Below the pieces are notes generated by a model, which worked only from the letters and a program-made list of their open reading frames with translations, was not told the DNA's origin and did no database searches. Made by a program: the position numbers and the translations under genes. Of a stretch of DNA of 64,000 nucleotides, positions 46,672 through 55,853 are shown piece after piece. This stretch comes from an uncultured Gammaproteobacteria bacterium (GTDB lineage: Bacteria; Patescibacteriota; Patescibacteriia; PEXW01): contig CAZAMC010000001.1 in assembly GCA_964486505.1 (NCBI GenBank), positions 106,133-170,132 of the forward strand. Reading direction: 5' to 3'. Within the stretch, counting starts at the first letter, position 1; every line of letters begins with the position of its first letter.

Positions 46672-46810
46672 GGAGTTACCTCCGAGGTTTCAGGTTATAA
46701 AGGTGTCACATATTCATGCAACCCGCTGCTGTAATTACAGAGCGAGAAGTGTGTATTTTTCTGTTTCGTGAGTATAGGCGAAACCCACCCGAAAAACAAT
46801 TCTGGTAATT

Positions 46811-47395
46811 CTACAGTTCAGTAACTTCCTCGCACTTAACCAACTTACTATTTAGAAAGGCAATGACCTGTTCTCTTGCTTCCATTGGAATGTGGAAACC
46901 AAAAGCAAACTGCGGTGGCCGTTCTGGATGCTGGACACTTTCCTTGTGAAAAATTTGTACACGTGGAAGCTTGAGATTTTCATCACTAATATGGGGCTGC
47001 AAAGCAGTTGTTATTGCAAAGTACTTATAATTTTTCCACATTCGTTTTTCATTGGGTGGTTCTATCATCGTCACCCCTTCATCATCAAAAAGTATTTTTC
47101 TATACCGGTAAGCTGTGATTTCCGCATTACCAATAAGAGTAATAAAACCAAAGACACAGACGGCACCAACCATGAGGAACGCTGCAAATGTGAAATCTTT
47201 CCATGTTGCGTACACTTGGTACGCAATATAGAGCGCTACGGGCGCCAAGGTTATCATAACCCATTTGTTTGGCATCCATTTGGGTAGACTTTTCTTCTTT
47301 GACGATGTGGATCCCAAAGTCAGCAACAAACCCCTGGGAGTCTTTTCTATGGACCCGGTAACTTTTGGTGTGAACTGTATGTTTGCATCACTCAT
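46811..47395 (-). CDS. Hypothetical membrane protein (2 TM + C-terminal soluble domain, possibly bacterial PH-like)
   Basis: TM hairpin (VMITLAPVALYIAYQVY / FAAFLMVGAVCVFGFITLI) followed by a ~110 aa domain. PH-like call is weak inference. Confidence 0.45.
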   Translation of the reverse strand: MSDANIQFTPKVTGSIEKTPRGLLLTLGSTSSKKKSLPKWMPNKWVMITLAPVALYIAYQVYATWKDFTFAAFLMVGAVCVFGFITLIGNAEITAYRYRKILFDDEGVTMIEPPNEKRMWKNYKYFAITTALQPHISDENLKLPRVQIFHKESVQHPERPPQFAFGFHIPMEAREQVIAFLNSKLVKCEEVTEL

Positions 47396-47451
47396 AATGG
47401 CCTCTTTATACTACTCTTCTGAAAATATCCAATGTAGACAACATTTACTCC

Positions 47452-48129
47452 TCACTCCTGAAAAAATATCGCCATGACAAACGAAAATATCGCAAGAAGC
47501 CCCATAAATACAAAAAATGCGATGCGAAAGTACTTCCCCGATGGTCGCAACTTACCCGTGATATTGGAGCTATGGCGTATACCATGTGCTTGTAGCCATG
47601 CTGTAGCTTGTGTATGCATGTCGGCATTCGCGTACACTGGCACGCTCCAAGCACTACCACGCAACTTTAAGTAAATCACAGTAAGTGGCAGCTTCCCTTC
47701 TTCCTGGGTATCAGCGGCGATTTTTCGGACAGTAGCTGGTTTGTACACCGAAAGAGAGTTATCACCATACAACGAATACCACCGTATGTTTTTGAGCGGA
47801 ATGGTGCGGGTACGGTTATCTTGCAGGATTTCTACTGCATCGGGTCGAAAAGTATACGTCGCTTCTGCCACCCCACCCCGCTTGCGGAAGGCCAATACTA
47901 ACAGTACGCACGCGATTGCCAAAGGCAAGAGAAACCAAAGGTAAATTGGATCTTGCGAAGCAGCGTAGATGCCTATAGCAAGAGTGAGGAAAAAAGCCGA
48001 AACGAGTACTCGCAAACCTTGGTAGCTACTGGCGCCTCGCAGCGCAAGGTTCTCGCCTTTCAGGTACTTCCAAGTAAGTGTGTCATTCATGTCGTTATTG
48101 TACCATTCGTCTCCGAATAAATCGTACAA
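47452..48129 (-). CDS. Hypothetical membrane protein (TM hairpin + soluble domain + C-terminal TM)
   Basis: LRVLVSAFFLTLAIGIYAA / LWFLLPLAIACVLLVLAF, then soluble region, then C-terminal FRIAFFVFMGLLAIFSFVMAIFF. Confidence 0.45.
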   Translation of the reverse strand: MYDLFGDEWYNNDMNDTLTWKYLKGENLALRGASSYQGLRVLVSAFFLTLAIGIYAASQDPIYLWFLLPLAIACVLLVLAFRKRGGVAEATYTFRPDAVEILQDNRTRTIPLKNIRWYSLYGDNSLSVYKPATVRKIAADTQEEGKLPLTVIYLKLRGSAWSVPVYANADMHTQATAWLQAHGIRHSSNITGKLRPSGKYFRIAFFVFMGLLAIFSFVMAIFFQE

Positions 48130-48340
48130 CCCCCACTATACCCAGAATGCCCAGTATCACCCCAATCCCCTGCGCCCCTGGGCTGTCATCATAGCCGCCG
48201 TACACCACCATGAACGCCCCGAACAGTATCGCCAAAATGGATAACCCGATTCGCGTCTTTCTATGCATAGGAGCTACATACTTCCTTTCATTTCTTCCGC
48301 TATATCTCGTCTGCCTCTTCAATCTAGCTTCGACAGCCAC
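48095..48340 (-). CDS. Hypothetical small membrane protein
   Basis: 81 aa. Two TM helices with GxxxG-like packing (GVILGILGIVGVV). Confidence 0.35.
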   Translation of the reverse strand: MAVEARLKRQTRYSGRNERKYVAPMHRKTRIGLSILAILFGAFMVVYGGYDDSPGAQGIGVILGILGIVGVVRFIRRRMVQ

Positions 48341-48588
48341 AGCTTTCTAATAGAAGTCAGGGACACCGTTGAGAGCAAGTAGCCAATTGCCGGAACGAAC
48401 GCGGCTAAAAACGGTCGACTACTTTTTATGATGAGTAGCCACAGCAAGGCGAAGATGTAGGTAACTACTGTCACAAACCCACGCCGTACCCACGACGTTT
48501 CCCACGCTTTGTCCGCTTCCACGCGTTCATTGCGTTGCTGGATCTCCACAAGTTGTTTTTGGAGGTCTTCCATGGGCATTCTATACAT
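48319..48588 (-). CDS. Hypothetical small membrane protein (2TM-like)
   Basis: 89 aa. N-terminal helical region then two TM helices. Confidence 0.35.
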   Translation of the reverse strand: MYRMPMEDLQKQLVEIQQRNERVEADKAWETSWVRRGFVTVVTYIFALLWLLIIKSSRPFLAAFVPAIGYLLSTVSLTSIRKLWLSKLD

Positions 48589-48964
48589 GGGCCTCCAAAA
48601 AAGCCTTCAATGCACCGAGGTCTTTTGCGTCCTTATCGTAGTGGTACGTGGTAATACCCACAGACTTCGCGCTCTCCACGGCTTCAGGGTTATGCTCAAA
48701 GTACACAACGTCCGCTGCGTTTAGCTGGTTCGCCTGAAGCATGGTCTTATAAAATACTGGGTTCACTTTGTCGGGATTGTGCTTCAGCGTGAACACGGGG
48801 TACGGAACCTTGTCCAGACCAAACTCCACCATCTGCTCATCATTGGCATTGGTCAAAATAATCTTCGGGTTAGGGTAAGTATCCAAAAGCTTTTGCATTG
48901 CAACATTAATCCCCTGCCCTTCGATAATAAACGTATTGTAAGCGTCAACGAGAATGGTTTTCAT
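48581..48964 (-). CDS. Small HAD-like hydrolase domain protein
   Basis: KTILVDAYNTF (DxY/D motif I-like). C-terminal VYFEHNPEAVESAKSVGI resembles HAD motif III/IV. Confidence 0.45.
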   Translation of the reverse strand: MKTILVDAYNTFIIEGQGINVAMQKLLDTYPNPKIILTNANDEQMVEFGLDKVPYPVFTLKHNPDKVNPVFYKTMLQANQLNAADVVYFEHNPEAVESAKSVGITTYHYDKDAKDLGALKAFLEAHV

Positions 48965-48966
48965 AG

Positions 48967-50280
48967 TTACATTTTCGATAGTGCTACTACCTTAGGACTT
49001 CCATCCTGAATATAAAAACCGTCGTCATTCCTAAGTAATTGCCCTGGATCATTTCTATCAATTTTGAATATCTGAAAACTCACTGTATCGTTGTCCAGCC
49101 ATGTAACGACGCCATCGGCAAGGTAACACCCATGACCACACGACAACACACCATCAGCCTCAGCGTACTCAAATACCAGTTCCTGGCGCTTGAGCGTTAT
49201 AAAGTCATACACATAGAAAAGTGCTTTGGGCTCATCCCCTGAAATTGGGGTTTCCTTATCAAGCTCAGCTTCAGAAGTTGTGAATTCAATTGCTTTTGTA
49301 TGGTCGGGAGAAAGCACAAGATTTGGTAAATATGGAATTGTCCAATCTACGCCCTTTTTAACGACTTTGCCTGAATCTGTCTTCAGCGTCAGGTATGGAC
49401 CGTTGAATATGCACCCACCGCATCCGGCTCCGCCCCGAAAGAAGAAAGTAATTTCATTATTCTTGTCATAACGAAACCATTCGTCTGCGGCTTCGCCTAT
49501 GCTTCTAATACTATCATTAAACTTTGCGCCAGGATTCGTTTTACCAAATTCTCCCGAAGTAATTTGGCTATGAATTGTTTTATCAAAAACCCTAACCTTC
49601 TTTCTATACAAGCAGCTATTTACTATTGTGTAATCTTCTTTAGAGATTTCTTCTTCAAGAGTTAATGCGCAGTTTTTTGGACGCGTATACTGCTCATCCA
49701 ATTTCTTTGACTTATAATCATAGGCACAGCCATCATTCACTACCCAATTGGCATAGGGGTCATAAATATTATTTCGTTCAGCAAGTATTTCTTTTGGGCA
49801 AATTTGCTCAAGTATTCCTGGATTACTAGCAATATAATCATATTTTTTTTCCGTTTTCGTTTCTTCGCAGGTATAACCACTCAATGTTAGAGTTTTACCT
49901 TCTGGGCAAGTACATTGTTCACGTGCCATTTTTTTTGAAGAGTCCCATGTGCCCCCGCTGTAAAGGCAATTACTATAAACATAGTTGTCTCGGCATGTCT
50001 TAAACACCCTATCCGATGTACAAGAACCGTTTTCGCATTTGCTAGGCCCATACATTCCAAAGCAATCTAGCCTGGCTGTACATGTTTGCTCATCAAGAAT
50101 TTTAGAGCAGGTCGGTGAGCTTGCATTCACGTTGACTTGCTCGTTTGATTGAACGACAACTTGATTCACAGCATTACTTACCATCTTTTGTTTATGCCAA
50201 CTCCAATACCCTAGATATGCAATACCAAGGCAGCCAGCAACGGCGAGGACAAGAACTAAAATTCGTGGAGTAAGCTTCAT
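48967..50280 (-). CDS. Cysteine-rich secreted or anchored protein
   Basis: N-terminal signal/anchor LVLVLAVAGCLGIAYLGYW. About 30 Cys in a 437-aa extracytoplasmic region. No family recognised. Confidence 0.5.
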   Translation of the reverse strand: MKLTPRILVLVLAVAGCLGIAYLGYWSWHKQKMVSNAVNQVVVQSNEQVNVNASSPTCSKILDEQTCTARLDCFGMYGPSKCENGSCTSDRVFKTCRDNYVYSNCLYSGGTWDSSKKMAREQCTCPEGKTLTLSGYTCEETKTEKKYDYIASNPGILEQICPKEILAERNNIYDPYANWVVNDGCAYDYKSKKLDEQYTRPKNCALTLEEEISKEDYTIVNSCLYRKKVRVFDKTIHSQITSGEFGKTNPGAKFNDSIRSIGEAADEWFRYDKNNEITFFFRGGAGCGGCIFNGPYLTLKTDSGKVVKKGVDWTIPYLPNLVLSPDHTKAIEFTTSEAELDKETPISGDEPKALFYVYDFITLKRQELVFEYAEADGVLSCGHGCYLADGVVTWLDNDTVSFQIFKIDRNDPGQLLRNDDGFYIQDGSPKVVALSKM

Positions 50281-50425
50281 AAATAGGTGGATATGCCCTC
50301 TTGTTCACACAGTATAATTCTTTGCTTTTCTCTCGTATACCCCCTAGAAATCCCCTTACAACGTTGACAGCGCATAATGAACTATGTAGTGTGCATGTAA
50401 ACTAAAAACAAACGATGGAGGTTGA

Positions 50426-50941
50426 ATGCACTTTAAATTCGGCGGTTTTGACACTTCTGCACTGTACGGGATTCTCGATGCTGTGGAGAAAAGCTTCATC
50501 ACCTTGTTCGAGCTGGATCTCCAAAATCCTCCGCGTCACCAAGGTGGCTTCTTCACCCTACGGGACGGCAAAACCGGAGACATTCTTATCGCTATCCAAG
50601 TTGGAGAAGTACCCCGGAAAGACCGCATGAAATGGTACCACCTAAGCCTGGAAAAAGGTGATCGACTCTTCCGAACATGGCATAAGAGCAGAATCGAGAG
50701 ACACCTCACGAGCTCGGAATCACGTGACCCAACACAAAACAAATTCGGCGGCGCGGTTATTGCCACAGAAGGTAAGTACCCGTACATTCTCTCGTTTCAC
50801 GGTCTGGGCGAAGAGCCTGATGAAGCGTTGATGGTCGCAACAGCCTTGAAGCTCCGCTGGATGTCTGCAGACATCGCACAGGAAATTGCTACCGCGTACA
50901 AAAATACTACGGCCCGCAATTTGCAGAAGCTCATGAGCTAA
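50426..50941 (+). CDS. Hypothetical protein (divergently transcribed, strong RBS)
   Basis: GGAGG 5-6 nt upstream of ATG. 171 aa, soluble. No family recognised. Confidence 0.45.
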   Translation: MHFKFGGFDTSALYGILDAVEKSFITLFELDLQNPPRHQGGFFTLRDGKTGDILIAIQVGEVPRKDRMKWYHLSLEKGDRLFRTWHKSRIERHLTSSESRDPTQNKFGGAVIATEGKYPYILSFHGLGEEPDEALMVATALKLRWMSADIAQEIATAYKNTTARNLQKLMS

Positions 50942-51024
50942 TACTCGCCCGACAGCGAACCAAGATCAGCCAGAAATGGTTGATCTTTTCTATAGTCTGT
51001 AACACCTACAACTGTATCGCGTTC

Positions 51025-51348
51025 TTAAAAGTCCTTCGTAAACTTACACTTCGGGTAGTTCGTGCATCCAAAAAACGGCCCATATTTGCCGCTCCGTTCT
51101 AATAAATTCCCACCACACTGTGGGCATTTTTGATTCTGTGCCATGGTTGTTGCCTTTTTCGATTTTCTAAACAAACGAAACAATCCCTTTTCCAGCTTTG
51201 CAATCGCCAGAGTTAAAAGTACCGCCGCAATGCCCCCAATAACAAGCCATGGCAACATCGTTCGTAATGTTGATTGCGCTAGGAACCCAGCAGCATTCAC
51301 GAGTTGTGGGTCTGCGGCCATTCTCTGTTTATTTCTTAAATGACACAA
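51025..51348 (-). CDS. Small membrane-anchored protein with C-terminal topoisomerase-type C4 zinc finger
   Basis: TM LPWLVIGGIAAVLLTLAIA then CPQCGG...YGPFFGCTNYPKC (zf-C4_Topoisom pattern). Confidence 0.55.
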   Translation of the reverse strand: MCHLRNKQRMAADPQLVNAAGFLAQSTLRTMLPWLVIGGIAAVLLTLAIAKLEKGLFRLFRKSKKATTMAQNQKCPQCGGNLLERSGKYGPFFGCTNYPKCKFTKDF

Positions 51349-51760
51349 AGAATGGTATATCGTTCATCTGCACATAGTTAAACATCCAATACCCAGCACG
51401 TCGTGCCCGTTTAGAAAGCTGATGCTTTAGAAGATGCTTTTTAGGGACAAAGGGATAGAAACGAATTTCTTGCTTCCTTTTCTGTTTTTCTATCCATTTG
51501 AAATTTAGAAAAAGCGGCGGCACCATATATCCAGACTTAGTCACCTTATCCATTATCTGCCAGCCTGCGCCAAACACAATATTACTTGGCTTGCGGTTGT
51601 TAGTCTTTACCTGCGCCCGAAAAGAACAACCAGTGCACTGCACATCATAAAGCGGATACCCTGTCGGTAAACACATAAGCTTCTTGCCACAATTCGGACA
51701 AGGTACGTACTTAACTACCTCTAATTCCCCTTGTTTTCCAGATGCTTGGTTTCCTGCCAT
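51329..51760 (-). CDS. Hypothetical zinc-ribbon protein
   Basis: CPNCGKK...CTGCS CxxC-x19-CxxC ribbon at the N-terminus. Basic C-terminal half. 143 aa. Confidence 0.45.
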   Translation of the reverse strand: MAGNQASGKQGELEVVKYVPCPNCGKKLMCLPTGYPLYDVQCTGCSFRAQVKTNNRKPSNIVFGAGWQIMDKVTKSGYMVPPLFLNFKWIEKQKRKQEIRFYPFVPKKHLLKHQLSKRARRAGYWMFNYVQMNDIPFFVSFKK

Positions 51761-51805
51761 GACCTCATTAGATCATGGTCAAACATCTTACGCAAGAAAA
51801 AAACT

Positions 51806-52897
51806 TTACTTACCAGCTTTGGTTCGGTTGTCTTCTTTGCACAACATCTGGCAATTTTCTGCTATTGTCTTGCCGCCCTCATGCCAAGGAGTTACGTGAT
51901 CAGCTTCCATCTCCGATATGTCATACTTTTTTTTGCAGAATGGGCAAATGGCCTTTTGTCGCTCATACGCTTCGCGCTTCATCTTGTCGGTAAATGCACG
52001 AATAGAAAGATACTTATCTTGCCTAGTTAAAATATATGGATAAATACCGGACTTTTTTGTGACGTCTTCATCTTGCATTAACTCCTTTACTTCGATTTCT
52101 AACTTTACTGCGTTTAATTTCCTTTCTTTATATTTATTAAATAACTCACCCCAATTTACATTCGACATTTCTTTTCGGTAATAGGGAAATGACTTGCGTA
52201 CCCAAGCAATCACGTCTTGAAAGTACTGCCATAATTCATCAGCGTTTTTATTGTGCTGGTGCTTTGCCATATAGTCTTCAATCTTGCCCTCATTTATCCA
52301 CGACAGGGCAGTTTCCAAATATTCTTGCCGTATTGGAGAACCGCTAAGCAACGGTCCGTCATCATTTGCTATATGATATGCAACACAGCCCGTCTTACTA
52401 AACTTGAGTTTCGCATCTGAAAGCCATGGGCCGGTATAAACTGCGTTGCGGATTTCTTGATCGGTTAATTTTTCTCCGGCAATATTGATAATTCTGAACC
52501 AGTCCAATCGTTCTTTATCCGTGCCTTCGCAAAAGTAAATCATTAGTTGGTAATCTAAAATCTGATCTTGTTCTTCCTTTAGAAGATTGTGAAAGTACCT
52601 TTCATCTAAGGAAAAATCGCCATTCACGAATTGACCGATACTAATTGTTCGCTGTTGACCATCCAGCACTTCATACCCGCCGTCCTCACGAACCATCCAG
52701 TACATAACATTAAGCGGAAAATTCTGTTTTACTGTTTCAAGCACTGCATTGCGTTGCTTATCCTTATAAACGAATTCACGCTGATATTTAGGACGAATAT
52801 CAAGTTTGCCACTGTAGGCAACCACACCTTCCTCGGCGCTATCTTTATAACCAGCGACCACTTCACGAATTGAAATTCTATGTAAATCAATTTTCAT
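51806..52897 (-). CDS. DUF262 (ParB/Srx-like) + HNH endonuclease fusion (GmrSD-like architecture)
   Basis: N-terminal RPKYQREFVY and VLDGQQRTISIGQF are DUF262 signature motifs. C-terminal CPFCKKK...ADHVTPWHEGGKTIAENCQMLCKEDN is a canonical HNH. Confidence 0.75.
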   Translation of the reverse strand: MKIDLHRISIREVVAGYKDSAEEGVVAYSGKLDIRPKYQREFVYKDKQRNAVLETVKQNFPLNVMYWMVREDGGYEVLDGQQRTISIGQFVNGDFSLDERYFHNLLKEEQDQILDYQLMIYFCEGTDKERLDWFRIINIAGEKLTDQEIRNAVYTGPWLSDAKLKFSKTGCVAYHIANDDGPLLSGSPIRQEYLETALSWINEGKIEDYMAKHQHNKNADELWQYFQDVIAWVRKSFPYYRKEMSNVNWGELFNKYKERKLNAVKLEIEVKELMQDEDVTKKSGIYPYILTRQDKYLSIRAFTDKMKREAYERQKAICPFCKKKYDISEMEADHVTPWHEGGKTIAENCQMLCKEDNRTKAGK

Positions 52898-52899
52898 AA

Positions 52900-54009
52900 T
52901 TAAATCTTTCGTTTTCGAATTACTATTCTAAAATATGTATACCTTTTGCCATTATCTATTGAACACATATGCCTTCCGATCCTATTATTTCCTCTATTAA
53001 GTATAAGCTTGTCATGATCAAATAATTGATAACGATTTAACGCATTTACAATTTCAAATTGCTTAGGGTTATACTTGTCAAGAAAGGTAATGGGCACGCC
53101 CATAGCGCCATAAAAGTTTTTTGGTATCTCGTTAACAACATTTACATTAATAGCATCGTAGTTATCGAACTTTTGAAATTCGTCGGTGGTATAGGTCTTA
53201 TAAAGGTCCAGCTTCTCGTGACGCTTTACAGTATCTAAATTTGTAAACCAATTGATGGCCGGAACCTTAACATAGCCTTTGTCTGGGTCATACCCTTTTC
53301 CGATTACAAACTTTCTATTTGCCTCAAGATTATTTACATAGGGAGTCTTATAAACGACGGACATATTAAAACCGTAACCTGACCAAATTTTGTTCTCTTT
53401 TATCAGTCTAAAAATTTCTTTATAGGTAATGGCATTCATATTGCCTAAGATCAAAAACTTCTTATTATTTCCTACGAGCTGCGCAACATACTCACGAAAG
53501 AGAGAAAAAGGAGGGTTGGTTACAACAATATCTGCATGTTTGAGGAGCGCAACACATTCATCACTGCGAAAATCGCCGTTACCACTAAGCGGTATAGAAG
53601 TGTTTTTATCGTGCTTAAGCAATTGCTCAACGTCTTCAAGACTAATAGAGCCATTTTTATTTATGTCCTTCACTTCATTAATTTCAATTCTGTACGCTTC
53701 GGCACCTTTAGGTTTTATTGACTTCAAACCTTCCATTTTAAACAATGGCAACTGCTTGCCCGCAATAGGTGATTTTTTGTAGCTCGTAGTAACAAGTTTT
53801 TTCAATCTAAGGGCATTAAAGTTTGCAGCAAAATACTTGAAGAAGTTACTTTCAAATGGGTCGTCACAATTACAATAAACGATCTTCCCACGAAACTGAT
53901 CTTTATAGTGTTTCAATTCTTTTTCAACATCAACTAGCTGAGTATAAAACTCATCCTTTTTCGCATGGTTAGCTTTGCGTAAGCCCTTGTTTGAGGACTT
54001 TGTGGCCAT
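52900..54009 (-). CDS. N6-adenine DNA methyltransferase, EcoRI-methylase-like family
   Basis: DEFYTQL...KIVYCNCDDPFESNFFKYF N-terminal block and catalytic VVTNPPFS motif IV. Large C-terminal putative target-recognition region. Confidence 0.7.
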   Translation of the reverse strand: MATKSSNKGLRKANHAKKDEFYTQLVDVEKELKHYKDQFRGKIVYCNCDDPFESNFFKYFAANFNALRLKKLVTTSYKKSPIAGKQLPLFKMEGLKSIKPKGAEAYRIEINEVKDINKNGSISLEDVEQLLKHDKNTSIPLSGNGDFRSDECVALLKHADIVVTNPPFSLFREYVAQLVGNNKKFLILGNMNAITYKEIFRLIKENKIWSGYGFNMSVVYKTPYVNNLEANRKFVIGKGYDPDKGYVKVPAINWFTNLDTVKRHEKLDLYKTYTTDEFQKFDNYDAINVNVVNEIPKNFYGAMGVPITFLDKYNPKQFEIVNALNRYQLFDHDKLILNRGNNRIGRHMCSIDNGKRYTYFRIVIRKRKI

Positions 54010-54059
54010 AATATCGATTAGGGATGAATGCTGCTAGTGTATTACGACTCCCCTAAAAA

Positions 54060-55853
54060 TCAACTCAATTTCTGCTTAACGAGTTTAGCTACATCCCTCG
54101 CAGAATCCTTACTAATCCCCCCAAACCCAGCATTAAACAAACGTCCAGGCACCCATATCCCCTTCACGCCCTTCTGTAAAAGTCTTTTCCAAAGATCCCA
54201 GTCCTGGTACCGCTTTAGGCTCTCATCAAAGCCAATGCAGTGCTCACGGCGGAGGAGGGACATTGTTGAAATGTAGTTGGCTTTTAGCAAGCGCTCGGGG
54301 TTGAAGTCGAAGAGGTCAAACGTATGCCAGCCGAACTTGAAGTCAGAATACGCATAGCCAGCTTCGGGGTGCAGAAGGAGGGCGCGGGCCATGCTCTCTA
54401 ACATAGTCGGCTGCAGCTGCACGTCGGCGTCGCAGTAGAGCACGAAGTCCCCGGTTGTCTTGGCAAACCCGGCATTGCGCGCGCTGGGGGCGCCTTTGTT
54501 TTCTTGGCGGATGAGCTGCACATTGAACTTCTTAGCGATTTCGGATGTGTCGTCTGTGGAACCATCATCAACCACCACAACTTCAAGCGGTTTTAGGGTT
54601 TGCGCGTTGAGGCCGTTCAAGGTTGTGGCAATGGTCTTGGCACTGTTGAACGCCGGGATAACAACGCTAACCTTTACCTTTGGGACGGTGGCAACCGTGT
54701 TCAAGAGTTCAGCGATGCGTGCGCGGCGTGTGTCCCAGCTGAACTGCTCTTTAGCAAACTTCTTGGCGCGGTCGCTGTACCGCTGAATCCGCAACGGGTC
54801 TTTGAGAAACGGTTCAATTGCTTTGGCAATTTCATCGGCTTCCCCGGGTTCAACCAGCTCACCAGTGAGGCCGGGTTCAATGGTCTCGGGTATGCCCCCA
54901 GTGTTGCTGGCAATCACGGGCAGGCCGTGGGCCTGGGCTTCCACGCTCACCAAGCCAAAGCCTTCCACATCGCCTCGCTTCCCTTCGAAACTCGGAAATA
55001 CAAAGAGGTCAGCCGCGGCATAGGCAACGTTCGTGTCTTCCACGTTATTCAGGACGTGAATGCGCTGTTCCAGTTTGTGCGTAGCAATCCGCGCCCGGAT
55101 GTTCCCCTCTTCGGCACCCCGGCCCACAATGAGGTAGTGCACGTGTGGGTACTGCGGCGCCAGCCACGCTACCGCATCAATTGCCAGCACGTGGCCTTTG
55201 CGCTCCACCAGCCGGCCCACCGTGAGCAGGATGTGCGCGTCCGCCGGCAGGTTGAGGGTTTTGCGGGCTTCGGTCTTCACAATCCCCTGCTCGGGAACAT
55301 CAGCCCCGGGGGTAAGGACAACTCGTCGACTTTCGGCTACGCCAAGGCGCTTGAGGTGCTGGTTAGTGAACTTGCTGTTCGCAACAACGAGGTCGGCTTG
55401 CCGGAGGTTCTTCCGCAGCATCCGGCGGCGCAAACCCCCGGCCGTGTCGTAGCTCAACACATCCATGCCGTGCGTAATGACCACCACCTTGGTGCCGTAG
55501 AGCTTGCGGCAGCGCAAAGCCGCCGCCAGGTAGGGCCCGTAGTGGCCCAGGACAATGACGTCGTAGTCATGCTTCTGTGTGAGCGCTGCAAAGCGGCGAT
55601 AGGTGCCCAACCACCGCGGCCGCAGTTTGCCGGTGAGCAACGGCTGCCGAATGAGCTTCCAACCGGCAACGACGCTCGATCCCGGTTCGGTGAGCACGTC
55701 CACGTTAACATCATGCCGCTCACCAAAGAGGTGCGCCAGAAACCGCTCTACCCCGCCGTAGGCGGGTAGGAACGTGGTCGTAACGAGGAGGACGCGCATG
55801 GTTTTATGCTGGACGCCTTCGAATAATCCGCCAGAGAGCCGAAAGCTCTTCAC
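54060..55853 (-). CDS. Bifunctional glycosyltransferase: N-terminal GT4 (group 1) fused to C-terminal GT2
   Basis: N-terminal MRVLLVTTTFLPAYGGVE and EGFGLVSVEAQAHGLPVIA. C-terminal KVSVVIPAFNSAKT...VVVVDDGSTDDT and CDADV. Confidence 0.8.
   Translation of the reverse strand: MKSFRLSGGLFEGVQHKTMRVLLVTTTFLPAYGGVERFLAHLFGERHDVNVDVLTEPGSSVVAGWKLIRQPLLTGKLRPRWLGTYRRFAALTQKHDYDVIVLGHYGPYLAAALRCRKLYGTKVVVITHGMDVLSYDTAGGLRRRMLRKNLRQADLVVANSKFTNQHLKRLGVAESRRVVLTPGADVPEQGIVKTEARKTLNLPADAHILLTVGRLVERKGHVLAIDAVAWLAPQYPHVHYLIVGRGAEEGNIRARIATHKLEQRIHVLNNVEDTNVAYAAADLFVFPSFEGKRGDVEGFGLVSVEAQAHGLPVIASNTGGIPETIEPGLTGELVEPGEADEIAKAIEPFLKDPLRIQRYSDRAKKFAKEQFSWDTRRARIAELLNTVATVPKVKVSVVIPAFNSAKTIATTLNGLNAQTLKPLEVVVVDDGSTDDTSEIAKKFNVQLIRQENKGAPSARNAGFAKTTGDFVLYCDADVQLQPTMLESMARALLLHPEAGYAYSDFKFGWHTFDLFDFNPERLLKANYISTMSLLRREHCIGFDESLKRYQDWDLWKRLLQKGVKGIWVPGRLFNAGFGGISKDSARDVAKLVKQKLS

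Follow-up and report, generated by a model that had tools for sequence, protein, structure and literature searches.

Is a DUF262 nuclease encoded directly behind an adenine methylase a restriction enzyme held in check by that methylase, or a modification-dependent enzyme whose neighbor serves another purpose? Two minus-strand genes in a 64,000-nt stretch of DNA (hereafter the window) raise this question. We consider it probable that they form a two-gene restriction-modification (R-M) cassette, in which an EcoRI-family m6A methyltransferase (MTase) protects and a DUF262-HNH nuclease cuts unmethylated DNA.

Both open reading frames were found on the minus strand where an initial annotation of the window had placed them (51806-54009), separated by a junction that reads ...ATT TAA tt ATG AAA... 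(Table 1). Every motif quoted in that annotation is present in the translations (KKDEFYTQ, VYCNCDDP and VVTNPPFS in the MTase; RPKYQREFVY, LDGQQRT and CPFC...EADHVTPWHEGG...ENCQMLCKEDN in the nuclease). Its domain assignments were likewise upheld by Pfam, with the MTase matching EcoRI_methylase over its full length (E=7.8e-133). The PADLOC models for R-M systems match the two adjacent same-strand genes as MTase_II (E=3.6e-110) and REase_II.

Short junctions recur across the family. The spacing between the MTase (M) and nuclease (R) genes is 2 nt at 39 of 73 loci, the reading frames overlap at 10 of the 73, and the gap is at most 24 nt at 57. Because of this spacing, the two genes are predicted to be translationally coupled. 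The cassette is a low-GC insert in a host of 55-60% GC, and the insert boundary falls where the upstream glycosyltransferase gene ends. The window contains no tRNA or Rfam matches.

Table 1. Positions of the cassette and of its functional motifs in the window
Feature	Position	Strand	Remarks
Boundary of the low-GC insert	54010..54060	.	GC steps up at the MTase start, from 0.36-0.41 to 0.58 (composition profiles)
EcoRI-family N6-adenine DNA methyltransferase, cassette gene 1	52900..54009	-	369 aa; Pfam PF13651, PADLOC MTase_II
MTase catalytic motif IV NPPF, residues 165-168	53506..53517	-	Read from sequence
MTase AdoMet-region motif CNCDDP	residues 46-51		Read from sequence
Spacer, MTase stop TAA to nuclease start ATG	52898..52899	-	2 nt
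DUF262 (ParB/Srx-like) + helical linker + Zn-HNH nuclease, cassette gene 2	51806..52897	-	363 aa
DUF262/GmrSD_N domain, residues 34-154, including QR motif Q39 R40	52436..52798	-	Pfam PF03235, E=4.3e-17
DGQQR motif, residues 79-83, presumed nucleotide-binding signature of DUF262	52649..52663	-	
Zn-ribbon HNH domain, residues 318-360, with N348 and N357	51818..51946	-	Pfam PF01844, E=4.1e-10
HNH D333-H334	51896-51901	-	

CNCDDP and TNPPFS are kept in at least 97% of 73 partner MTases, and over residues 1-321 the window MTase shares ~45% identity with the M.EcoRI found on E. coli plasmids. M.EcoRI (GAATTC; partner R.EcoRI) is itself 45-60% identical to the partner MTases of the nuclease family and nests among them. 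A single MTase clade has thus paired with two nucleases that are not homologous, R.EcoRI and the DUF262+HNH enzyme. Since M.EcoRI lies inside this group, the window MTase likely targets a site with an AATT core, for instance GAATTC or a less strict form of that sequence; for GAATTC itself, the nesting is a phylogenetic hint only. M.CjeNI is another EcoRI-family MTase. It was at first reported to be GAATTC-specific and actually recognises RAATTY (PMC3526280). In P. intermedia, GAATTC methylation went undetected for an EcoRI-homologue MTase with a REase gene, possibly of another nuclease family, directly downstream (PMC5608340), which speaks against the R-M explanation. A non-specific adenine MTase like Hia5 was ruled out because the Hia5 family is Dam-related, whereas the MTase described here is EcoRI-related.

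The cassette resembles the EcoRI system in being a two-gene module with a PF13651 MTase, whose m6A guards host DNA in the EcoRI system and is predicted to do so here. It differs in its nuclease, as the ParB/Srx-like and HNH domains are unrelated to the PD-(D/E)XK fold of R.EcoRI, and in its gene order, with M preceding R across a 2-nt junction where the E. coli EcoRI locus has R before M.

The nuclease of the window matches the PADLOC-DB model PDLC03418 ('REase_II') over its full length (E=5.6e-134; model positions 1-371 of 372 align with residues 1-362) and is therefore a member of that catalogued family. The model comes with neither an enzyme name nor a recognition site nor an evidence level. 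The available portions of the PADLOC papers cite REBASE and are silent on whether the models derive from characterised enzymes.

A degenerate HNH site, a concern raised at the outset, was not observed: D333, H334, N348 and N357 are invariant in an alignment of 118 sequences. In a more diverse alignment (A2, 35-56% identity), N348 is invariant and H334 is kept in at least 90% of sequences. The N-terminal signatures are retained at the same distances, with Q39 and R40 invariant, D79, G80 and R83 of DGQQR also invariant, and Q81 and Q82 each kept in at least 90%. In the window nuclease, Asp356 occupies the fourth Zn-ligand position of the family consensus LCxxCN, and the consensus of 35 close homologues (at least 80% identity) likewise reads LCKQDN.

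At the C-terminus, no DUF1524 domain was found in the nuclease; the region is a Zn-HNH of the PF01844/PF14279 type. The nuclease-family profile matches the Gme HNH nickase 4h9d (1.2e-6), the HNH domains of IscB and Cas9, and McrA 6ghc. KpnI is an example of an HNH-type Type II restriction enzyme. The HNH profile of our family falls with the group-1 HNH domains that also include McrA, MnlI and Cas9. In having a beta-beta-alpha-Me catalytic domain within an R-M system protected by methylation, the family resembles HNH-type Type II enzymes such as MnlI and Hpy99I (PMC5714182). A ParB/Srx (DUF262) module for binding DNA or nucleotides is absent from every HNH Type II enzyme described in the His-Me classification of PMC5714182.

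The fold was modeled with AF2 from 118 sequences of 54-87% identity (pLDDT 88.8), and an earlier model built from a shallow alignment (at least 80% identity, pLDDT 41) was discarded. When this model was searched with Foldseek, the best solved match was BrxU 7p9k (E=9.8e-5, TM 0.25), and the DUF262 part matched the N-domains of CTP-binding ParB/Noc proteins. In sequence, the family profile is only marginally similar to BrxU (E=0.011 over 36 residues), and the PADLOC models for GmrSD, BrxU and SspE do not match the nuclease at E<=0.01. The likeness to BrxU, as judged from the model, is thus one of fold only. Nucleotide binding has been described for BrxU/GmrSD and NTP stimulation for BrxU (PMC12707154) and, by analogy with these enzymes, the conserved DGQQR pocket probably holds a nucleotide that would regulate the nuclease.

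How common is the arrangement? At an E-value of at most 1e-30, the relatives of the nuclease fall into 494 clusters at 50% identity. Of 80 loci from species-representative genomes, 77 have a same-strand EcoRI-family MTase gene immediately before the nuclease gene, in line with the operon-like pairing of the initial annotation, and so do all 78 testable viral loci (nuclease identity 50-77%). The six plasmid and phage records that we inspected all have the MTase upstream, at nuclease identities down to 38%. Carriers span many phyla and hundreds of species, with numerous Patescibacteria among them, as well as small plasmids, 241 viral contigs and a cultured Flavobacterium phage. Natural single-chain EcoRI_methylase-GmrSD_N-HNH proteins also exist (P0150, 688 aa, and the fragment P0255). 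The pairing, called uncommon in the initial annotation, is therefore not rare but one of the more frequent cassettes in the databases covered here, and PADLOC already has a full-length model that classes its nuclease family as a Type II REase.

Mobile cargo, such as T5orf172-like genes, sits between M and R at some loci. In 2 of the 80 genomes (loci L054 and L059), an intact nuclease has no EcoRI-family MTase within 12-14 kb, and such solitary nucleases weigh against the R-M explanation. A DpnI-like gene downstream of the window pair was excluded as a third cassette component because it co-occurs at only 1 of 80 genome loci and 0 of 80 viral loci.

The two genes have evolved together, M and R distances being correlated (Mantel r=0.58, p=0.001). 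Purifying selection on both is strong: R has a dN of 0.075-0.12 and M one of 0.24-0.33, with synonymous sites saturated. Recent transfer, as the ~80% identity across phyla was first read, is ruled out by this saturation, which makes the divergence old and the constraint strong; the cassette has therefore been maintained over the long term. The nuclease is ~3x more constrained than its MTase and is conserved uniformly, with no variable specificity segment. In Type II systems, the opposite balance of conservation is usual. Nucleases that are at least 90% identical can adjoin MTases that are as little as 50% identical, and the non-catalytic segments diverge strongly among MTases serving near-identical nucleases. 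Both the swapped MTases and the more conserved nuclease weigh against the R-M explanation.

In the R-M cassette that we propose, the MTase would methylate the N6 of adenine within a short target on host DNA. In the nuclease, DNA recognition would fall to the N-terminal ParB/Srx-like DUF262 module together with the helical region, and the C-terminal Zn-HNH site (D333-H334, N348, N357) would cleave unmethylated DNA, with the m6A added by the partner MTase stopping cleavage. With M first and a junction of 2 nt, the cell may make the methylase ahead of the nuclease and in amounts proportional to it.

Protection by m6A might also work in a less conventional way, with a nuclease other than a classical site-specific Type IIP enzyme that needs Mg alone. 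It would be a nucleotide-gated ParB-fold enzyme that loads onto or scans DNA and cuts at positions that are only loosely set, so that the density of m6A rather than an exact site protects the host. We regard this as rather unlikely. It would fit the invariance of the DGQQR and QR motifs, a fold resembling both CTP-binding ParB/Noc and the NTP-stimulated BrxU (PMC12707154), and the uniform constraint on a nuclease that pairs with such divergent MTases, but the divergent MTase segments may simply be under weak constraint, NTP binding or hydrolysis is so far a prediction, and PADLOC places the nuclease family among Type II enzymes. Site usage in the host is also compatible with loose cutting: palindromic 4- and 6-mers show no selective avoidance, whether in the window or across 1.05 Mb of host flanks (in the flanks, AATT has an observed/expected ratio of 0.99 and GAATTC of 0.93). 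The lack of palindrome avoidance is also a point against the R-M explanation. A mobile, recently acquired cassette, as suggested by the GC step, likewise predicts no site avoidance.

The initial annotation had offered two alternatives, an m6A-protected nuclease or a Type IV enzyme attacking DNA with an orthogonal modification, such as modified cytosines, next to an m6A MTase with a separate role. We find the latter highly unlikely. The nuclease does share its DUF262 N-domain with Type IV enzymes, BrxU is its best solved structural match, the available reviews treat DUF262 nucleases solely as Type IV, and the two solitary intact nucleases fit it too. That the closest solved structure is modification-dependent is also a point against the R-M explanation. 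However, a Type IV role leaves unexplained why linkage on one strand is near-obligate, why junctions are 2 nt long or overlap, why M and R occur as fusions and why the divergence of the two genes is correlated. In addition, the C-terminal nuclease is a classical Zn-HNH and not a DUF1524 domain, the PADLOC Type IV models are unmatched, and the sequence similarity to BrxU is marginal. It is because of the linkage, the junctions, the fusions and the co-evolution that we favor m6A-protected R-M, so the first of the two alternatives is well supported and the second is not supported.

We give hardly any credence to a selfish or competitive element that persists by post-segregational killing, with phage copies that may degrade host or rival DNA and defense as an incidental effect: the breadth of carriers, the low-GC insertion and the mobile cargo between M and R would suit it, but it concerns selective benefit rather than mechanism and is compatible with the R-M explanation, and saturated synonymous divergence under strong protein constraint indicates long-term maintenance.

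The nuclease can be compared with the GmrSD, BrxU and SspE enzymes, which are Type IV or PT-sensing nucleases. All have an N-terminal DUF262 domain with DGQQR followed by a C-terminal His-Me finger nuclease. The C-terminus is a Zn-ribbon HNH here and DUF1524 in the other enzymes, the protein is shorter, at 363 aa where the aligned part of BrxU has 580 residues, and it is almost always linked to an MTase rather than standing alone. Modification, on which those enzymes depend, would presumably block the nuclease described here.

A literature search that extended neither to REBASE nor to the preprints on Nanomotif and on MTase classification in which PF13651 is named found no published biochemistry on any member of the nuclease family, and no publication describing the MTase/DUF262-HNH pair. 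We tentatively suggest, as a possibility short of an even chance, that DUF262(ParB/Srx)-HNH nucleases with EcoRI-family MTases constitute a biochemically undescribed, methylation-blocked class that uses a nucleotide-gated ParB-like module. Such a class would account for a nuclease far more constrained than its MTase, and its nuclease might even be an iso- or neoschizomer of EcoRI without being homologous to it. Elsewhere, a nucleotide-gated module of this kind is known only from Type IV enzymes that depend on modification and from the CTP-switch clamps of ParB.

The cassette of the window is in itself ordinary, one more instance of a mobile R-M cassette that is very widespread, inserted here as foreign low-GC DNA beside a glycosyltransferase gene. 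Its interest lies in the family: reviews view DUF262 nucleases as modification-dependent, and here a large and deeply conserved clade of them is tied to a protecting m6A methylase. If the nuclease family is uncharacterised, it would offer a compact HNH restriction enzyme, possibly with EcoRI-like specificity, and a test case for a ParB-fold nucleotide switch in self/non-self discrimination. It would also represent a frequent barrier to the genetic manipulation of CPR bacteria and of the plasmids of lactic acid bacteria. Should a nucleotide-gated, methylation-blocked class prove true, its mechanism would link Type II restriction with Type IV.

The methyltransferase (MTase, M) and the nuclease (R) are two adjoining minus-strand ORFs separated by 2 nt (junction TAA-tt-ATG). 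ORF coordinates, the reading of the junction and Pfam bear out this spacing and the domain assignments proposed in the initial annotation, and all the motifs that it quoted were found in the two proteins. The Pfam EcoRI_methylase domain spans the whole MTase (E=7.8e-133), while in the nuclease residues 34-154 match GmrSD_N/DUF262 (E=4.3e-17) and residues 318-360 match HNH (E=4.1e-10). GC content is 36-41% across the cassette region versus 55-60% in its surroundings, and composition profiles show a sharp step at ~54.05 kb, exactly where the MTase begins. This composition marks the cassette as foreign DNA in the host genome. The low-GC stretch that contains it (~46700-54050, 0.37-0.52 versus 0.55-0.60) also carries several ORFs without Pfam or PHROG match. 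No tRNA or Rfam elements were found in this stretch, nor any recombinase domain among its ORFs scanned against Pfam.

Features of the cassette and its surroundings (positions within the window)
Feature	Position	Strand	Length	Remark
EcoRI-family MTase	52900..54009	-	369 aa	
DUF262+HNH nuclease	51806..52897	-	363 aa	
DpnI-catalytic-domain-like protein	51329-51760	-	143 aa	begins 45 nt after nuclease stop
Small protein	51025-51348	-	about 97-107 aa	overlaps end of DpnI-like gene
Fused GT4+GT2 glycosyltransferase	54060-55853	-	597 aa	directly upstream of MTase
Cys-rich protein, probably secreted	48967-50280		437 aa	no Pfam or PHROG match
Membrane proteins	46811-47395 and 47452-48129			no Pfam or PHROG match

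The family to which the pair belongs is very widespread and already catalogued, and the pair adds a new member to it. In a collection of 5.8 billion proteins, at least 8000 are close relatives of the nuclease; the best 120 all share at least 80% identity with it and are drawn from Patescibacteria, Chloroflexota and Margulisiibacteriota, among other groups. The arrangement had been thought uncommon, which is not borne out: when 50%-identity representatives were searched exhaustively, 494 clusters matched at E<=1e-30. Species-representative genomes carry genes for relatives at 577 places, and further copies lie on 241 viral contigs, on 44 plasmids (full-length) and in laban6-1, a cultured Flavobacterium phage.

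A same-strand EcoRI-family MTase lies upstream of the nuclease in 77 of the best 80 genome loci (of 577) and in all 78 testable viral loci, where nuclease identity is 50-77%; two further viral loci of the 80 offer no upstream sequence and were left out of this count. The same order is found on Aeromonas, Rhodococcus and E. faecium plasmids, on an uncultured gut plasmid and in a phage, including at 38% nuclease identity, with stop and start overlapping or abutting in three of these records. Among the 73 loci where both genes are complete, the MTase stop lies within 24 nt of the nuclease start in 57 and exactly 2 nt from it in 39; in 10 loci the two reading frames overlap. In the remaining 16, the genes are separated by 0.35-1.9 kb of variable cargo, including T5orf172-like, DUF2130-like and RhuM-like ORFs. 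Two proteins from the 50%-identity family search point to putative single-chain fusions: P0150 (688 aa) reads EcoRI_methylase-GmrSD_N-HNH, and P0255 (319 aa) is a fragment of the same type with EcoRI_methylase and GmrSD_N. Finally, the distance matrices of the two proteins are correlated (Mantel r=0.58, p=0.001).

Taken together, linkage, coupling, fusion and co-evolution argue strongly for a functional dependence of the nuclease on the methylase, and favour the first of two options raised in the initial annotation, a nuclease blocked by the m6A mark of its partner. The second, in which the nuclease is a modification-dependent Type IV enzyme with an orthogonal target and acts independently of the adjoining MTase, would predict none of the four. 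Two loci carry intact solitary nuclease copies, 78-79% identical, amid housekeeping genes: L054 (984-2090), beside DnaJ and GT4 genes, and L059 (3305-4396), beside SerRS, NYN and S49 peptidase genes. No EcoRI-family MTase was found within the 12-14 kb examined at either.

The site between the two genes seems to be an insertion hotspot. Cargo was seen there at L011, L019, L025, L027, L034, L037, L040, L042, L060, L065, L068, L069 and L081; it includes a recurrent protein of ~200 aa ("MKGIIYIMTTAVSGL...") that looks T5orf172/GIY-YIG-like from its sequence alone, a DUF2130-like protein of ~430 aa, RhuM-like proteins and others.

PADLOC assigns the MTase to MTase_II over its full length (E=3.6e-110) and the nuclease to REase_II, model PDLC03418 (E=5.6e-134), with residues 1-362 aligned to positions 1-371 of the 372 in the model. 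A Type II REase label for exactly this architecture thus already exists in PADLOC, which cites REBASE. The NsnA and PD-T4-2_A models matched only partially, in the DUF262 region, PtuB matched only marginally, in the HNH region, and the GmrSD, BrxU and SspE models did not match the nuclease. Against the PDB, a profile of diverse nuclease relatives retrieved the Gme HNH nickase 4h9d (1.2e-6), IscB/Cas9 HNH domains and McrA, all classical Zn-ribbon HNH domains, and BrxU marginally (E=0.011 over 36 residues). An AF2 model built on a 118-sequence alignment (pLDDT 88.8) had as its top solved structure in Foldseek BrxU (E=9.8e-5, probability 0.99, TM 0.25), a GmrSD-family Type IV enzyme, followed by CTP-binding ParB/Noc N-domains and then HNH domains. 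The predicted architecture runs from a ParB/Srx-like domain through a helical region to a Zn-HNH domain.

A degenerate HNH His/Asn had been named in the initial annotation as refuting its proposal, and alignment shows the key residues to be conserved. Q39, R40, D79, G80, R83, C318 and N348 are invariant and Q81, Q82 and H334 at least 90% conserved among relatives 35-56% identical to the window protein, and the 118-sequence alignment shows no variation at D333, H334, N348 or N357, so the nuclease is not degenerate. At residue 356 (51830-51832), the fourth Zn-ligand position, the window protein has Asp (LCKEDN) where the family consensus LCxxCN has Cys; the consensus of 35 close aligned homologues (>=80% identity), LCKQDN, also has Asp. 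Conservation of Asp356 under purifying selection would imply either zinc binding by a Cys3-Asp site or an enzyme that no longer depends on zinc.

Over residues 1-321, M.EcoRI and the window MTase share 45% identity. In a neighbour-joining tree of 139 MTases, M.EcoRI nests among those found upstream of DUF262-HNH nucleases, closest to the MTases of viral loci L121 and L123 (60% identity). Nucleases of two non-homologous kinds thus have partners from a single MTase clade, since R.EcoRI, which precedes M.EcoRI on E. coli ColE1-type plasmids, is unrelated to the DUF262-HNH nuclease. By inference, the target of the window system would be GAATTC-like or have an AATT core. The exact site is not readable from homology because of M.CjeNI, which we take to be an EcoRI-family member. 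First reported as GAATTC-specific, it in fact recognises RAATTY (PMC3526280). In P. intermedia, an EcoRI-homologue MTase followed directly by an REase gene was expected from M.EcoRI homology to methylate GAATTC, but no such methylation was seen (PMC5608340); that REase may be of another nuclease family. We found nothing in the accessible literature describing the DUF262+HNH architecture as a Type II enzyme, and a 2025 review of R-M biology takes up DUF262 solely in connection with GmrSD-family Type IV enzymes and SspE.

In 98.7% of locus pairs, conservation is higher for the nuclease than for its MTase (mean 80% versus 60%), with dN of 0.075-0.12 versus 0.24-0.33 and saturated synonymous sites (pS about 0.8). 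The high identity of the nuclease across phyla is therefore a sign of very strong constraint acting over deep divergence and not only of recent transfer. Conservation is uniform along the nuclease, with no hypervariable segment, whereas the MTase diverges mostly at residues 81-140, 201-300 and 321-360, which lie outside its catalytic motifs. Nucleases at least 90% identical can adjoin MTases only 50% identical, so MTase alleles are sometimes replaced. No selective avoidance of palindromic 4- or 6-mers was detected in 1.05 Mb of host flanks (O/E 0.99 for AATT, 0.93 for GAATTC) or in the window. The constraint, the pattern of variation, MTase replacement, the lack of avoidance and the solitary nucleases fit a mobile orthodox Type II system, and they also allow for a less conventional enzyme in the form of a nucleotide-gated ParB-fold nuclease.

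The DpnI-like protein downstream (PF06044, E=5e-10; PADLOC mREase_II, 4.7e-7; DpnI PDB 4esj, E=0.015) has a 4-Cys cluster, shows D...QVK at the position of the D...ELK of DpnI, and has no equivalent of DpnI's C-terminal winged-helix m6A-reading domain. A possibly m6A-directed nuclease beside an m6A methylase is a curious arrangement. The small protein after it combines a hydrophobic segment with a C-terminal topoisomerase-I-type C4 zinc ribbon (PF01396, E=3.9e-15), and the same gene order recurs in Logan contig L083. The DpnI-like gene was considered as a cassette component and rejected. Neither of the two travels with the cassette, the DpnI-like gene co-occurring with it in 1/80 genome loci (L078) and 0/80 viral loci, with no plasmid homologue found. 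Both are therefore regarded as neighbours outside the cassette that may belong to a small defence island. On the other side, the glycosyltransferase also matches PF20706, "GT4 in conflict systems" (E=7.5e-18); the GT4 adjoining the solitary nuclease at L054 matches it too (E=2.3e-10).

Overall, the pair is probably best explained as an m6A-protected R-M cassette whose nuclease is apparently modification-blocked. Its unconventional aspect belongs to the family and not to the locus in the window: an extremely constrained ParB/Srx-HNH nuclease paired with the M.EcoRI clade.
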